DNA of 32,000 nt from Candidatus Saccharimonadota bacterium. GTDB taxonomy: Archaea > Nanohalarchaeota > Nanosalinia > Nanosalinales > Nanosalinaceae. Below the pieces are notes generated by a model. That model saw only the letters and a list, made by a program, of their open reading frames with translations. It did not search any database and had not been told where the DNA came from. Below are positions 1 to 31,354 of this stretch, piece after piece (the first letter of the stretch is position 1; each line of letters opens with the position of its first letter). The stretch covers positions 180,001 through 212,000 of the forward strand of contig CP012986.1 of the NCBI GenBank assembly GCA_001761425.1. Reading direction: 5' to 3'. Both the position numbers and the translations under genes were made by a program.

Positions 1-711
1 GTAGAGGTGCAGGGTTCGCTGGATACTGTGCCTGAGGACCTTGGTATCGATGTCCATGATTCGAACGTTAATGAGGACGATATCTACTGGGCTGAGGCCT
101 GTGAGACAGGAGAGGCAGTTCTGGTTAAGGATGGGGATGTCGAGTTTGGTAACGCGCCGCCCGCGAATTTGCTGGCCTATGAACTGTTTTCTGATACAGA
201 TATTACTGTACCGGACGTCGGATACTCTGCTGAGAGAGATGAGGTTTATATAGAAATCCTGGAAGGCTACGATGGGACTGTACAGTCGATAGGCGAGGGA
301 AATCAGAGCGACTTTATGAAATGCGTTGCTGCAAAGGCCTTGATCGGTGATCCGGATCTAATGCATAATATAGGAAAGGTGGAGGATGGCTACGCGTTGA
401 TCGATCCTGATCAGGCTGGTGCACCGATCTTTACTTTTGAGGAGGATGTCTTCGATTACTTGGAGGTTATTAACTCCGGAACCTCCTTCGATATCTCGCG
501 CCAGGATTTCAGAGAAGCTGTGGAGAAGGTCTCTGGAAAAGTAGGTGAAGGCCGTCTTGAGGCCTCTCTGGAAAAACTTGAAGTTTTCAAGGAGAGTATC
601 CCGGCTTACGCTAATTTTGAGCCGGATTTTATACGCGGTAATTTCCGGTCTGCGTCTGAAGGTTTTCAGAAAATTAAGACGGAGGAAAGGCCTCTGGTTC
701 CGAAGAGTTGA
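1..711 (+). CDS. hypothetical acidic protein, 5'-truncated by the window edge; kinase-like catalytic-loop pattern
   Basis: The frame is open from base 1 to the TGA at 709-711, and the listed GTG at 7 is probably internal. Composition is very acidic, like the other genes here. 'IGDPDLMHNIGKVEDGYALIDPD' resembles the GD-x-H-x2-N ... ID-x-G/D catalytic and activation segment of PI3/4-kinase or protein-kinase-like folds. This is pattern recognition only. Confidence 0.5.
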   Translation, partial: VEVQGSLDTVPEDLGIDVHDSNVNEDDIYWAEACETGEAVLVKDGDVEFGNAPPANLLAYELFSDTDITVPDVGYSAERDEVYIEILEGYDGTVQSIGEGNQSDFMKCVAAKALIGDPDLMHNIGKVEDGYALIDPDQAGAPIFTFEEDVFDYLEVINSGTSFDISRQDFREAVEKVSGKVGEGRLEASLEKLEVFKESIPAYANFEPDFIRGNFRSASEGFQKIKTEERPLVPKS

Positions 712-737
712 TATACTTTCTTTGTTAAGAACTGTTT

Positions 738-1220
738 ATGGCTGAAGAGGATCATCCTTTTGCTGATGCTACGGCGCGCAAAACCTCTACAATAGTTACT
801 AAACACAGTATTGCGGTTCCTGAGGATGAACAGAAGTTCAAGAAGTCGGAGAGAGCATGGAACTGGGAAAAGATTGTCGACCTCATCTTCCCTGAGGAAC
901 AGTCGCCTAAGCGGAACAGGTATGCGAAGATCTTTCTCCGTGAATTAAAGGATGAAGGCACTATAAACTCGGAGAAGCTGAATGCGTTCGATGAATGGGG
1001 TCATGAAAAAGGAAAATCAAATCTGAAGAACAATATTTTGCCAAAGCTACGTCGTATAGGAATTATACAGTACGAATATATTGAATATCGAGGCGAGAGA
1101 GAAGGTTCTAAAGGCCGTCGCAAAATTATCAAGCCAGCAAAATCTTTTACTTCGATACTGGACTCTATGGCGAACGGTTGGTCTACATTCGAGTCAGCTG
1201 CGTACCAGAATCATGACTAA
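738..1220 (+). CDS. hypothetical protein, possible winged-helix DNA-binding C-terminus
   Basis: 160-aa ORF starting 27 nt after the previous stop. The basic segment 'ILPKLRRIGIIQYEYIEYRGEREGSKGRRKIIKP' looks like a wHTH wing. I recognise no family. Confidence 0.5.
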   Translation: MAEEDHPFADATARKTSTIVTKHSIAVPEDEQKFKKSERAWNWEKIVDLIFPEEQSPKRNRYAKIFLRELKDEGTINSEKLNAFDEWGHEKGKSNLKNNILPKLRRIGIIQYEYIEYRGEREGSKGRRKIIKPAKSFTSILDSMANGWSTFESAAYQNHD

Positions 1221-1339
1221 GGCCTTTCAAATCCGGTTATTTTGTTTTATCGTTATGAGATAGATATCTCTAAGGCCTCTGGACGCTACAGCTTCTCTTT
1301 CAAATTCTTAGAGGGCTGTGGCTGTAACGAGGTTTGCCT

Positions 1340-28669: not shown

Positions 28670-28734
28670 AATTGACCGCAGAACTGTTAATAAATAGAAG
28701 GGTTACGAGGGAGTATCCCCCGTCTAAAAGGCCT

Positions 28735-31029
28735 CTAGGCGTAATAATCAGGTGTGTCGTCTTCGTCAGTCTCCATCTCGTTCATCTTCTGAGTCATCGC
28801 CCTGTACTGCTCAAGGTTGTCTGAAGTAGCCGTAGGCCTTACATCGGCGATAGCCTCCTCAAATTCCTCCATGGTTGCCTCCCCTGAATCGATGTCGCTT
28901 CTCAACGCGTTCATCCCTGCCTCTCTACAGGCAGACTCTATATCTGAACCGACGTATCCCTCGGTCATTTCTCCTAACTCATCGAGGTCTACATCGTCAC
29001 CGACAGGCATGTCTCGTGTATGGACCTCGAAAATTTTTCTCCTGCCTTCTTCATCAGGGATCTCGACTTCTACGTTCCTGTCAACTCTTCCAGGCCTCAT
29101 TATCGCTGGATCGATCATGTCAGGCCTGTTGGTTGCAGCGATGACTGTGACTCCTTCAAGACTCTCTATTCCATCCAGCTCTGTCAACAGCTGGTTGACC
29201 ACGCGGTCTCCTACTCCTGAATCGCTGCTTCTTCCTCCTCTTCGTGGTGCAATTGAGTCTATCTCATCGATGAACAGGATGCACGGTGCTACCTGACGAG
29301 CCTTCTTGAAGATCTCTCGCACGGCTTCCTCGGATTCCCCGACGTACTTGGAGAAGACTTCAGGGCCTTTGATGGAGATGAAGTTTGCGTTCGCCTCGTT
29401 TGCCACTGCTTTGGCCAGGAGAGTTTTTCCTGTACCGGGCATGCCGTACATCAGGATTCCTTTAGGCACTTCGATACCCATCTTCTCAAACCTGTCCGGA
29501 TACTTCTGAGGCCATTCTACCATCTCCTTCAAACGGTCTTTTGTATCGTTCAGGCCTCCTATGTCTTCCCAGGAGACTTCTGGGACCTCTACCATAACTT
29601 CTCTCATCTGGCTTGGCTCTACGTTTCTCATGCCATCTATCATTGCAGCTCTGCCAACTACAAGCTGTTCAAGCACCTCAGAAGGTATTTCTTCGTCCAT
29701 ATCGATCTCAGGTATCACCTCTCTCAGCACGGACATCGCAGCTTCTTTACATAAGGCCTCGAGGTCGGCTCCTACATAGCCGTGGGTCTTTTCTGCGATC
29801 TCATCGAGATCTACGTCTTCTTCCAGGGGCATATTCCTTGTATGGATCTGGAGAATCTCTTTTCTACCTCCTCTGTTCGGCACTCCGATCTCTATTTCCC
29901 TGTCGAACCGTCCTCCTCTTCTGAGAGCAGGGTCAATAGCTTCTGAACGGTTTGTAGCAGCGATGACTATAACGTTTTCCCTGCTTTCAAGGCCGTCCAT
30001 CTCGGAGAGGAGGGTTGCGACGACCCGTCTTTCTACTTCTCCGCCTGCGTCACCTCTCTTCGGTGCGATGGCATCGATCTCATCGATGAAGATGATAGCA
30101 GGTTCTCCTTCACGGGCCTCATCGAACTTCTCTCTCAACTGTTTTTCAGACTCTCCATAGTACTTGGACATGATTTCAGGCCCGTCAATGGAGAGGAACT
30201 GTGCATCCGCTTCATTAGCAACAGCCTTCGCCAGCAAAGTTTTACCGGTCCCCGGCGGACCCTGAAGTAAAACTCCAGAAGGTGCGTCAATACCAAGCTG
30301 CTGGAAAACCTCAGGATGCTTCAGAGGAAGCTCGATCATCTCACGAACCTTCTGAACTTCCTCATCAAGGCCTCCAATATCCTCATAGGTAACTTCCGGA
30401 ACCTGTACAGAGTCCTCTCCAGGCTCGGAAACAGCCTGTTCCCGGACCTTGATCTCAGTCTCCTGAGTGATCTTCACAGGGCCTGACGGATCTGTAGAAA
30501 CAACAGCTAGCTTTGTCTCACCGAAGCTGAACCTGAAATTATCTCCCATACCGTCAAACATGTCATCAAACAGAGAACGAGCGTTATCCTTCCCGCTCTC
30601 AGGGACAACAATATCTCCCTCAAGTACAGGCCTTCCTACAAGGCCTCTCTTGAAGATATTAGGGTCTTTTACCTGCATCATGACTCCTTCTTCTGCCGGG
30701 GCAAGTGTGATCTGTTCAGCAGCCTTGAGGTCAACTTTCTCAACTTCTACATGCTCTCCCAGGGATGTGCCTGCGTTTTTACGCATGTAGCCGTCCATCC
30801 TTGCGATTCCAAGGCCTTTATCCGCAGGATAGCTCCTGGCTACACGGCCTACTGTTTCTCTACTGCCTTCTAGGCTTACTGCATCTCCCTCTCTTACCTG
30901 GAGTTTTTCCATGATTTTGCTGTCAATTCTAACTATGCCTTTGCCAACATCCTGCTGAGCGTTTGGAGGAACTTCTCCAACCCTCAACCGTTTGGAACTG
31001 TCTTCTTCATCTGTCATCTTGTTCTTCAC
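28735..31029 (-). CDS. cdc48: Cdc48/VCP-like AAA+ ATPase (two AAA domains)
   Basis: 764 aa with an N-domain. D1 has 'GPPGTGKT' and 'IIFIDEIDA'. D2 has 'GMPGTGKT' and 'ILFIDEIDS'. Second-region-of-homology arginines are present. The alternative start 'MTDEED' is at 31017. Confidence 0.95.
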
Positions 31030-31354
31030 CTGGATAAATTTCGTCTAGTATGTCTTTTTCATCGATAACGACCTTGAATCGGTGGAAAGAAACTTTCTCT
31101 CCCCACTCGTTGAAATAAGATACAACTTCGTCGGCAGCCTCTTTTGCAACGATGAAGACACTGTCATCAATCCTGAGGTGAGGTATCTCATCCATCAATC
31201 CATCTTTCTCGTATTCGTAGTGCTTCCCGTTACGTTTGACGGTCTGCGTGTAGCCGAAAAGGCCTCTGTAGAACTTGTTCCGCTCGTAGACGGATTCGAA
31301 GTTCTCCTTCTTCGTTCTGTAGGTCAGAAGGGCCGCAGCCGATTCCCTGGTCAT
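31007..31354 (-). CDS. hypothetical protein, overlapping the cdc48 start
   Basis: 115-aa ORF with normal (acidic) composition. Its 3' end overlaps cdc48 by 11-23 nt, depending on the cdc48 start, which suggests co-transcription. I recognise no family. Confidence 0.55.

Follow-up and report, generated by a model that had tools for sequence, protein, structure and literature searches.

Why should a six-nucleotide palindrome, AGGCCT, recur on average once in about 240 bp of nanohaloarchaeal DNA, some 20 times more often than expected by chance, and on what does the responsible force act? The window (the whole stretch of 32,000 nucleotides analysed) contains exactly 131 copies, the first at position 95 and the last at 31260-31265, which bears out the hand count of about 130 and the roughly 20-fold excess reported in an earlier note on this DNA; the G+C content and expectation used there (about 45% and 6) need correction to 47.1% and 6.9. 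AGGCCT is the commonest of all hexamers in the window, the runner-up among palindromic hexamers being AGATCT, with 22 copies. Over 48.7 kb of contiguous source sequence we found 206 copies, or 4,230 per Mb, with an observed/expected ratio (O/E) of 19.9 versus 2.5 for the next palindrome, and the 1.1 Mb source genome should contain about 4,700 copies if the measured density holds.

95..31265, no strand assigned: dispersed copies of AGGCCT (n = 131), 116 of them genic in three frames and 15 in or touching spacers; extended form RAGGCCTY

As originally claimed, it is the complete hexamer that is in excess, not its GGCC core. GGCCT is preceded by A in 131 cases, by C in 11, by G in 20 and by T in 13, and AGGCC is followed by T in 131, by A in 10, by C in 11 and by G in 6; the earlier values of about 130 for the palindromic flanks were therefore accurate, as were the ranges given for C and T upstream (10-17) and for A and G downstream (6-10), but G upstream and C downstream fall outside them. 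Markov simulations predicted 9.3, 29.6 and 67 copies at orders 1, 2 and 3, respectively, and the maximal-order model 123. The values from orders 2 and 3 and from the maximal order are inflated because the sub-words of the motif feed them, and we discarded the maximal-order null, since most occurrences of AGGCC and GGCCT lie within AGGCCT itself. Permutation of synonymous codons within genes produced 18.4 +/- 3.6 copies versus the 116 genic copies observed (z ~27), and shuffling of codon order 9.7 +/- 3.0. The motif survives codon-preserving shuffles and hence is not a peptide or codon-pair effect, in agreement with the initial conclusion that it is not maintained at the peptide level. Independent assemblies from JGI, Logan and ENA, as well as other MAGs, show the motif at equal density, and it is therefore not an assembly artefact.

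Genic copies occur in the frames AGG-CCT (17, with 3.9 expected from the permutations), xAG-GCC-Txx (38, with 4.9 expected) and xxA-GGC-CTx (61, with 9.3 expected), so that every frame is 4-8-fold above the synonymous-permutation expectation, and an origin in a few codon pairs of a single frame, which the earlier note had named as fatal to its finding, does not apply. They are divided between genes on the + strand (55) and on the - strand (61), and a further 13 copies are wholly intergenic, in 2.8 kb of spacer DNA of 41.5% G+C where 0.44 would be expected (~29-fold), confirming that the motif pervades all three frames, both gene strands and spacers. The copies are spaced somewhat more evenly than a Poisson process would place them (variance/mean 0.68 in 500-bp bins, p = 0.007; range 0.5-0.7), and every 1-kb bin of the 48.7 kb has at least one site.

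The motif occupies most of the positions where synonymous choice permits it, 116 of 155 (~75%), comprising 17 of 19 RP contexts, 38 of 56 [EKQ]A[CFLSWY] contexts and 61 of 80 xGL contexts. Moreover, AGGCCT pressure has increased the number of compatible peptide contexts, which are 1.3-2 times commoner than in the orthologues of non-enriched relatives; contexts at AGGCCT sites are identical to those orthologues in 23% of cases, against a background of ~34%. The flanks are also biased, with A (51%) or G (23%) at position -1 and T (45%) or C (32%) at +1, and at leucine codons the synonymous third position gives CTY at 53 of the 61 sites, compared with 51% elsewhere (p = 3e-6). This R...Y preference is symmetric in sense orientation as well, so the extension, RAGGCCTY, keeps the palindrome, with the same trend in the relatives L007 and L008. 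One-nucleotide deviations from AGGCCT have O/E values of 1.86, 0.89 and 1.07 at outer, middle and inner positions, respectively, versus 1.09, 0.99 and 1.37 in non-enriched relatives; they are thus biased to the first and last positions, in a modest sample with which L007 agrees for outer, not inner, positions. The outer-position bias described by Elhai for HIP1, the highly iterated palindrome of cyanobacteria, resembles this pattern (PMC4390886). GGCC lacking both flanks falls short of expectation (0.47, versus 0.68 in non-enriched relatives), and the joint rise of half-sites keeping GGCC and fall of flankless GGCC are as expected if GGCC flanks are driven towards A...T.

Several copies are paired at gene ends or in spacers:

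1220..1278, no strand assigned: AGGCCT pair directly past the stop of gene 738-1220, the first copy overlapping the final A of the TAA stop
2927..2950, no strand assigned: spacer pair AGGCCT-N12-AGGCCT, upstream of the histone gene (2647-2844, -)
7560..7593, no strand assigned: AGGCCT-N22-AGGCCT in the spacer where genes 6259-7521 (+) and 7620-8279 (-) converge; a T-run lies 14 nt downstream
12876..12890, no strand assigned: AGGCCT pair with a 3-nt gap (AGGCCTCAAAGGCCT) in the spacer where genes 12260-12871 (+) and 12920-14335 (-) converge
17778..17837, no strand assigned: two AGGCCT in the spacer that holds the divergent promoters of the 2-oxoacid dehydrogenase operon (-) and the acetyl-CoA synthetase gene (+)
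20516..20536, no strand assigned: AGGCCT-N9-AGGCCT with TTTTTT after it, in the spacer where genes 20044-20493 (+) and 20542-21426 (-) converge

All three convergent spacers in this small sample thus carry a pair, and two of the pairs directly abut T-runs. The pair at 12876..12890 forms a hairpin of 6-8 bp followed by T-runs on both strands, and supplied the two best terminator-like matches of our hairpin scan. Terminator-like hairpins were rejected as a general explanation of AGGCCT, being no more frequent than in shuffles, and tRNA and Rfam scans revealed no features involved in the motif.

Hyper-iteration of AGGCCT is a trait of a single nanohaloarchaeal lineage, the clade of Ca. Nanopetramus SG9 (DPANN), so the archaeal origin supposed at the outset was correct. 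The window matches without difference a halite-metagenome contig of 1.125 Mb, which is probably SG9. Enrichment reaches 13-17x in the two closest lineages and 3-8x in two others, and is about zero in the sister lineage (L001) and in most other relatives, including equally halophilic ones of similar G+C content; a metagenome scan contributed one further informative relative, L205. Among the matches listed in a scan of viral contigs, dense AGGCCT triplets were mostly tandem repeats or chance, and a few contigs (L086, L161, L167 and L091) carry dispersed AGGCCT but could not be linked to nanohaloarchaea. The motif therefore appears and disappears among related lineages, and this patchy distribution suggests a determinant prone to gain and loss, such as a gene of restriction-modification (R-M) type.

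Between SG9 and a 98%-identical strain, 4.4% of AGGCCT sites differ versus 10.6% of all hexamers (p = 6e-5; counted per genome, since the count over the union of sites, 8.5% vs 10.7%, understates retention). The motif is thus 2.4-fold more stable than random hexamers, yet turnover continues, with balanced strain-specific copies (8 only in SG9 and 7 only in the ENA strain). In the 78%-identical L007, AGGCCT is also found at 10 of 16 sites in contexts with identical amino acids, and 12 of 29 sites are common to both, versus a background of 23%. This sharing is about what the overall saturation of L007 itself (57%) predicts, and it suggests one even pressure over the whole genome rather than conservation of particular sites.

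These results establish AGGCCT, or its degenerate 8-bp form RAGGCCTY, as a genome-wide highly iterated palindrome that operates at the DNA level. Its independence of frame, strand and spacer shows that the force is exerted on double-stranded DNA, and from the symmetric flanks we infer a site-specific protein, itself symmetric, as the agent; flanks of this kind are as expected for a predicted dimeric reader. Of the two substrates first proposed, DNA or RNA, the former is favoured by the flanks and by the enrichment of divergent-promoter spacers, and the latter is disfavoured.

AGGCCT may be a tag of self DNA similar to HIP1 or to bacterial DNA uptake sequences (DUS/USS), probably linked to methylation and accumulating by molecular drive; we adopt this reading tentatively, with somewhat less than even confidence. 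The sites would be read by a putative protein of StuI type, specific for AGGCCT; a DNA methyltransferase with a partner sensing methylated or unmethylated AGGCCT is the most probable candidate. DNA bearing the tag would have an advantage in uptake, recombination, protection or repair towards the tag, and near-cognate words would be converted to AGGCCT wherever protein function allows, so that the motif accumulates by the same logic as proposed for cyanobacterial HIP1 and bacterial DUS/USS. In favour of this reading, methylated HIP1 boosts transformation (bioRxiv 10.1101/2024.09.10.611283; 10.64898/2026.06.24.733823), systems that methylate AGGCCT exist (PMC12128166), and DNA import has been proposed for nanohaloarchaea via SPEARE proteins, four of which are found in SG9 (PMC6642349). 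Against it, neither natural transformation nor DNA uptake biased by sequence is known from these organisms. A search of nanohaloarchaeal DNA (tblastn with an M.HaeIII query, plus motif regular expressions) retrieved no C5 or N4/N6 methyltransferase signature in ~49 kb of the 1.1-Mb source genome or ~190 kb of relatives, nor was any Vsr/Mig-type enzyme or uptake gene found there, and the 49 kb showed no competence genes either. A SMRT methylome has been published for a single nanohaloarchaeon, Ca. Nanohalococcus occultus, in which GDGcHC is the sole methylated motif (PMC11001535), and the nanohaloarchaeal entries of an archaeal R-M survey are M3_22 and Nanohalobium constans, not SG9 (PMC10609329).

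The comparison with HIP1 made in the earlier note proved apt. HIPs of cyanobacteria reach 300-2,700 per Mb (Elhai 2015, PMC4390886; Xu et al. 2018, PMC5861425). Like HIP1 (GCGATCGC), AGGCCT is a short G+C-rich palindrome, the leading hexamer of the 48.7 kb, with an O/E of ~20 and thousands of copies per Mb (~4,200); it likewise occurs in all frames and in non-coding DNA above the codon-usage expectation, has flanks that extend the palindrome and deviations concentrated at the outer positions, and is patchy among lineages, being replaced or absent in close relatives. Unlike HIP1, it is archaeal (DPANN) rather than cyanobacterial, is a hexamer (degenerate octamer) of another sequence and denser, has no cognate methyltransferase (often an orphan enzyme in HIP genomes) in the ~49 kb plus ~190 kb examined, and shows no conservation of orthologous sites beyond saturation between genera. 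HIP1 sites are conserved above background (Xu et al. 2018), and HIP1 has a long-range periodicity of 10-90 kb; for AGGCCT the 48.7 kb covered bear on short-range spacing, which is slightly more even than Poisson.

The DUS of Neisseriaceae and USS of Pasteurellaceae are non-palindromic words of 9-12 nt, present about once per kb, with known uptake machinery and molecular drive (PMC1939737; PMC1626085). AGGCCT resembles them in being over-represented genome-wide and inside genes in several frames, in its preference for less constrained protein segments (contexts identical in 23% vs ~34%), in the pairing of copies into hairpins at gene 3' ends, as in the terminators where DUS/USS pairs sit, and in its steady-state turnover. 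It differs in being a 6-8-bp palindrome, with 4.2 copies per kb, in an organism not known to be competent, and a tag of this length would discriminate self DNA only weakly. R-M systems normally cause avoidance of their sites, not accumulation. Proteins reading exactly AGGCCT do exist, and the recognition sequence is the same in StuI-type systems; Alcanivorax borkumensis SK2 has an active AgGCcT system with m4C methylation and 1,674 sites in ~3.1 Mb (PMC12128166), which by our own estimate is ~2-fold over composition, not 20-fold.

An alternative that we consider unlikely is that RAGGCCTY forms an array bound by an abundant dimeric chromatin, nucleoid-organising or segregation protein, with selection keeping its density high and fairly even. 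The symmetric 8-bp preference, the 2.4-fold stability between strains and the presence of at least one site in each kb of the 48.7 kb argue for it, and a structural role under selection, linked to the nucleoid, has been proposed for HIP1 (Xu et al. 2018, PMC5861425). The evenness of the sites is explained no worse by a structural function or a binding array than by drive, although it could also stem from a limited supply of compatible codon contexts. Individual sites, however, are conserved no more than genome-wide saturation predicts, and L001 and most relatives show almost no enrichment despite the conservation of core chromatin genes, including the adjacent histone, in both kinds of genome. 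The array would also seem to need effective selection on each of ~4,700 sites in a symbiont with a small genome.

Very-short-patch repair, one of the candidates first put forward, is improbable. It would need an m5C methyltransferase whose target is GGCC or AGGCCT, together with a T:G mismatch enzyme of Vsr or Mig type that over-corrects to C:G and so turns AGGTCT or AGGCTT into AGGCCT. Archaea offer a precedent in a GGCC methylase paired with the T:G glycosylase Mig.Mth, and in E. coli CCWGG, the Dcm/Vsr target, is over-represented; AGGCCT, as a putative methylase word raised by a DNA-level process, would be comparable, and its GGCC-keeping half-sites behave unlike inner variants. Yet the effect in E. 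coli is small against ~20-fold here, and this mechanism is disfavoured because the neighbours that deamination would produce are not depleted: AGGTCT plus AGACCT occur 35 times versus 23 expected, and AGGCTT plus AAGCCT 26 versus 23, over 48.7 kb. Transition neighbours are at 0.86-0.88 of the synonymous permutation, no lower than transversion neighbours, AGGTCT is what xGL contexts without the motif most often carry instead, and strain differences inside AGGCCT show no C-to-T hotspot. In addition, such repair fixes one transition per half-site, leaving the outer A/T and the R/Y flanks unexplained, and the single HhH glycosylase that the window encodes, of Ogg type (7620-8279), occurs in non-enriched relatives too.

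A role of AGGCCU in transcripts of either strand, recognised by an RNA-binding protein, an RNase or RNA-RNA pairing, appears very improbable. Strand independence by itself is compatible with it, and two copies can pair into a 6-bp helix, as they do at 3' ends beside T-runs, but an RNA motif needs no DNA palindrome with R...Y flanks symmetric in sense orientation, the enrichment is strongest in spacers, divergent-promoter ones included, terminator-like hairpins do not exceed their frequency in shuffles and no Rfam family matched. An origin in codon usage, in dipeptide composition, in a handful of common codon pairs or in an artefact of assembly can be virtually dismissed, for although xxA-GGC-CTx is the commonest frame (61 of 116) and GGC, CTT and CCT are frequent codons, this reading is refuted by the synonymous permutation in each frame and by the ~29-fold spacer enrichment, and it is further opposed by the equally halophilic relatives of similar G+C that have none and by the same sites in independent assemblies.

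The self-DNA tag also has a bolder form, which we regard as rather unlikely, in which RAGGCCTY would be the first archaeal DNA uptake or self-recognition sequence: a probably methylated tag of its own lineage in a DNA-importing DPANN ectosymbiont, set against host haloarchaeal DNA, such that tagged DNA is recombined or spared, untagged DNA is degraded for nucleotides and the tag spreads by molecular drive.

We found no prior description of AGGCCT hyper-iteration in the literature, and hyper-iterated palindromes, a puzzle for 30 years, have to our knowledge been confined essentially to cyanobacteria, with HIP1. AGGCCT is a second, independent and denser case, in a different domain of life, in the 1.1-Mb genome of a symbiont and with another word, and the phenomenon is not, then, a cyanobacterial peculiarity. 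It measurably shapes protein sequences, with more R-P, x-G-L and [EKQ]-A-x contexts, and, because its density marks the lineage strongly, it can help to bin these genomes. Sister lineages whose enrichment is 0-fold, 3-8-fold or 13-20-fold offer natural contrasts for finding the responsible gene by presence and absence and, if the link to DNA import or self-recognition is true, the motif would bear on how DPANN symbionts handle the DNA of their hosts.

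The window contains exactly 131 copies of AGGCCT, first at position 95 and last at 31260-31265, which places it first among all 4,096 hexamers; the runner-up among the palindromic ones, AGATCT, has 22 copies. Given a G+C content of 47.1%, the composition expectation is 6.9 copies, and first-order Markov simulations yielded 9.3 ± 2.8. Simulations of second and third order gave 30 and 67 copies, respectively, and the maximal-order expectation was 123, values that are inflated because the sub-words of AGGCCT itself feed them. The excess is specific to the full palindrome, as the earlier note had claimed: the base before GGCCT is A in 131 cases and C, G or T in 11, 20 and 13, and the base after AGGCC is T in 131 cases and A, C or G in 10, 11 and 6. 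Copies are found throughout, 5-13 in each 2 kb of the window. A 48.7-kb composite, made by joining the window to its flanks (L078 and L075) in the source genome, probably Ca. Nanopetramus SG9 (SG9), contains 206 copies, or 4.23 per kb, and the SG9 genome would total ca. 4,700 if this density holds.

We cross-checked the gene model of the window with independent gene calls. Genes hold 116 copies, 55 of them in plus-strand and 61 in minus-strand genes, read as AGG-CCT (17), xAG-GCC-Txx (38) or xxA-GGC-CTx (61). Another 15 lie inside or touch spacers; thirteen are fully intergenic, against 0.44 expected in 2.8 kb of spacer with 41.5% G+C. The codon-preserving shuffle proposed in the earlier note was run as a permutation of synonymous codons within each gene, which preserves every protein and the per-gene codon usage, and yielded 18.4 ± 3.6 copies, with a maximum of 32 in 500 trials, against the 116 observed; every frame on its own was 4-8-fold above the permutation. 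AGGCCT is realised at 116 of the 155 (75%) synonymous opportunities that the peptides allow, namely 17 of 19 at R-P, 38 of 56 at [EKQ]-A-[CFLSWY] and 61 of 80 at x-G-L. From the permutation, per-frame, spacer and saturation results it follows that the count is far above a codon-preserving expectation and is no single-frame effect, so that the earlier description of a hyper-iterated word read in all frames, on both strands and in spacers is robust, and its core interpretation is supported overall. A peptide or codon-pair origin is excluded by the same data, and so is an artefact, to which the distribution among relatives also speaks.

The preference extends beyond the hexamer, making the word a degenerate palindrome of 8 bp. 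Among the 206 copies of the composite, position -1 is A in 51% and G in 23%, and position +1 is T in 45% and C in 32%; synonymous sites agree, as frame-3 copies use CTT or CTC for Leu in 53 of 61 instances, compared with 51% among other CTN codons (p = 3e-6). The flank preference appears on both sides in sense-strand orientation and is, therefore, no product of mixing genes from opposite strands. Such a symmetric RAGGCCTY consensus would be expected for a symmetric, dimeric, site-specific DNA-binding protein.

Copies are also spaced with modest evenness, for which the limited supply of compatible contexts may be partly responsible: the coefficient of variation of the gaps is 0.83, counts are under-dispersed (variance/mean 0.68 per 500 bp, p = 0.007, and 0.51 per 2 kb, p = 0.02) and each 1-kb bin contains at least one copy. 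Spacer copies are often paired, 3-48 nt apart, and a pair occurs at all three convergent gene ends, in two of them directly against T-runs. Terminator-like hairpins showed no overall excess over shuffles; the top-scoring one corresponds to the following pair:

12876-12890, both strands: AGGCCT pair, top-scoring terminator-like hairpin

The window is 100% identical to the Logan assembly of SRR2630167 and to the 1,125,078-bp JGI contig 3300010222 Ga0136257_100001, and its genome fits that of SG9, a 1.1-Mb single-contig genome from Atacama halite (bioRxiv 10.1101/029934; PMC6642349). It encodes a family-B DNA polymerase (PolB), whose nearest relatives are from Nanohaloarchaea (63-83% identity), Cdc48, an archaeal histone, a 2-oxoacid dehydrogenase operon and an ADP-forming acetyl-CoA synthetase. 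In three related nanohaloarchaea, the PolB orthologues (L007 11584-13040, L009 1740-3028 and L050 414-1870) carry a ca. 1.3-1.5-kb insertion at the place corresponding to window residues 526-530, which is missing from the window PolB and looks like an intein. The operon region is syntenic in several relatives and is metabolically notable for a member of the DPANN:

10632-12260: multicopper oxidase near the 2-oxoacid dehydrogenase operon
12920-19909: complete 2-oxoacid dehydrogenase operon (E1 alpha, E1 beta, E2, E3) and adjoining ADP-forming acetyl-CoA synthetase

A metallophosphoesterase gene (window 3085-3743, minus strand) is broken into 159 and 56 aa in SG9 and into pieces of 77 and 160 aa in ERZ27300266, the ENA strain with 98% identity (L079 9102-9760), and is a single 219-aa ORF in strains L081 (1784-2443) and L082 (295-954); the two disruptions are independent and suggest that the gene is decaying or was misassembled. 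A class I/II aminotransferase ca. 3-4 kb past the right end of the window, split into 142 and 218 aa in SG9 (L075 7113-8221) and intact, with 369 aa, in the ENA strain (L076 7109-8218), is a further candidate for a pseudogene or frameshift. Certain words are very scarce in the 48.7 kb of SG9, including CTAG (observed over composition-expected, O/E, 0.31), CGCG (0.35), GCGC (0.36), ACTAGT (0 vs 13 expected) and CGCGCG (0 vs 8 expected), which are candidate restriction-avoidance signals, opposite to AGGCCT.

Enrichment differs widely among nanohaloarchaeal lineages.

AGGCCT O/E over orthologous, syntenic loci
SG9 (source genome): 20
L205: 17; PolB identity 83%; 40.6% G+C
L007: 13; PolB identity 78%; 50% G+C
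L008: 8.5; 39% G+C
L002: 3.4
Eleven other nanohaloarchaeal loci, pooled, among them L003 (0 copies) and L001 (1 copy): 1.2

L008 (LKMP01000003.1) and L207 (LFCJ01000031.1) are one 70,690-bp nanohaloarchaeal contig from a soda lake, listed under two accession prefixes among genomes and metagenomes, a duplicate and not independent evidence. In a neighbour-joining tree of PolB, from which L205 was left out, the high-density clade consists of SG9 and L007 and has the non-enriched L001 as sister, with L008 and L002 placed elsewhere, beside non-enriched lineages. Saturation of synonymous opportunities parallels the O/E gradient (ca. 75-80% in SG9, 57% in L007, 23% in L008, 17% in L002 and 0-3% in L001, L003 and L005). 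Together, the patchy O/E, the tree placement and the saturation gradient indicate that the trait evolves quickly and patchily; it behaves as a determinant prone to gain and loss, not as a conserved core function. The adjacent histone gene, for instance, is conserved in enriched and non-enriched relatives alike.

Among the matches listed, a few IMG/VR viral contigs (L091, L086, L161 and L167) also show dispersed AGGCCT enrichment. In L091 (IMGVR_UViG_3300025172_000014; 6,654 bp), AGGCCT ties for the commonest hexamer (13 vs 1.5 expected). This small contig encodes a rolling-circle Rep and has an identical site triplet close to either end, so that it is possibly terminally redundant or circular; L086 and L161 have 36% G+C and prefer AAGGCCTT.

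Peptide contexts compatible with AGGCCT are 1.3-2 times more frequent in window proteins than at the same aligned codons of non-enriched orthologues (e.g., 55 vs 35 for L001 and 43 vs 21 for L003). Pooled, the context at sites is the same as in these orthologues in ca. 23% of cases, against ca. 34% for background tripeptides, and for L001 alone in 6 of 42, against 38.5% (p = 0.001); the pressure thus also shifts the amino-acid sequence or exploits variable positions, resembling that reported for the uptake sequences USS. In the comparison with L007, 12 of 29 window sites are common to both, with a background hexamer identity of 23%. Where the peptide context is identical, 10 of 16 window sites are also AGGCCT in L007, which is close to its overall saturation and, therefore, points to a uniform genome-wide pressure, with no sign that individual sites are selected.

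Between SG9 and the ENA strain (L076, L079), the share that differs is 4.4% for the sites, 10.6% for hexamers overall (p = 6e-5) and 9.6% for one-off neighbours (p = 0.007), and the site differences are balanced (eight SG9-only, seven ENA-only). Sites are thus retained ca. 2.4-fold better than average, yet their turnover is at steady state. Site differences often fall where the sequence is locally divergent, in patches resembling recombination tracts. The ca. 2% divergence between both strains is itself clustered in short, substitution-rich patches (L077 vs L076 and L078 vs L079; e.g., positions 8373 and 16812 of the L078/L079 alignment), suggesting that homologous recombination with alleles of greater divergence is frequent.

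By sequence statistics, AGGCCT belongs to the HIP class of highly iterated palindromes. Its one-off words are biased to outer positions, as in the cyanobacterial HIP1, where Elhai tied this bias to a core-specific methyltransferase (PMC4390886): half-sites keeping the GGCC core have an O/E of 1.86 (1.09 in non-enriched relatives), GGCC with neither flank matching is depleted (0.47 vs 0.68) and inner variants are near baseline. It resembles DUS/USS in its spread within genes, its tendency to occupy peptide contexts under less constraint and its 3'-end pairs, but falls outside their word length and their description as non-palindromic. Full-text literature searches retrieved no paper mentioning AGGCCT together with Nanohaloarchaea, or palindromes in this group; the SG9 genome paper is silent on palindromes and methylation, and the sole nanohaloarchaeal methylome reports GDGcHC. 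Within the literature searched, this is, therefore, the first archaeal, and DPANN, example of a HIP-type repeat; its word is new and its density higher.

What maintains the word can be narrowed. An array of binding sites for a chromatin or nucleoid protein is a serious rival to the drive favoured below, supported by the even spacing and the better retention of the sites. Very-short-patch repair, a candidate of the earlier note, is disfavoured: it predicts a depletion of T-containing neighbours, yet in the 48.7 kb AGGTCT plus AGACCT number 35 (23 expected) and AGGCTT plus AAGCCT 26 (23 expected), these neighbours stand at 0.86-0.88 of the synonymous permutation, not below transversion neighbours, and AGGTCT is the top unrealised alternative in x-G-L contexts; nor can such repair explain why the outer A/T and the R/Y flanks are selected. 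A role in RNA is unlikely, because it needs no symmetric RAGGCCTY flanks and because divergent-promoter spacers are enriched. That each of ca. 4,700 sites is held by selection in a small-genome symbiont does not seem plausible, and this, with the uniform saturation, steady turnover and patchy phylogeny, favours a molecular drive. The drive would be exerted through a protein reading AGGCCT symmetrically, most likely linked to methylation and connected with the uptake, recombination or protection of self DNA. A search of ca. 49 kb of the 1.1-Mb SG9 genome and ca. 190 kb of relatives revealed no methyltransferase, mismatch enzyme or uptake gene. Methylation systems specific for AGGCCT are known (PMC12128166); methylated HIP1, which correlates with uptake machinery, increases transformation by as much as >100-fold (bioRxiv 10.1101/2024.09.10.611283; 10.64898/2026.06.24.733823), and nanohaloarchaea have been proposed to import DNA through SPEARE proteins, four of which occur in SG9 (PMC6642349). 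Our best, still tentative, estimate is that AGGCCT might be a HIP1/DUS-like tag of self DNA that accumulates by drive.
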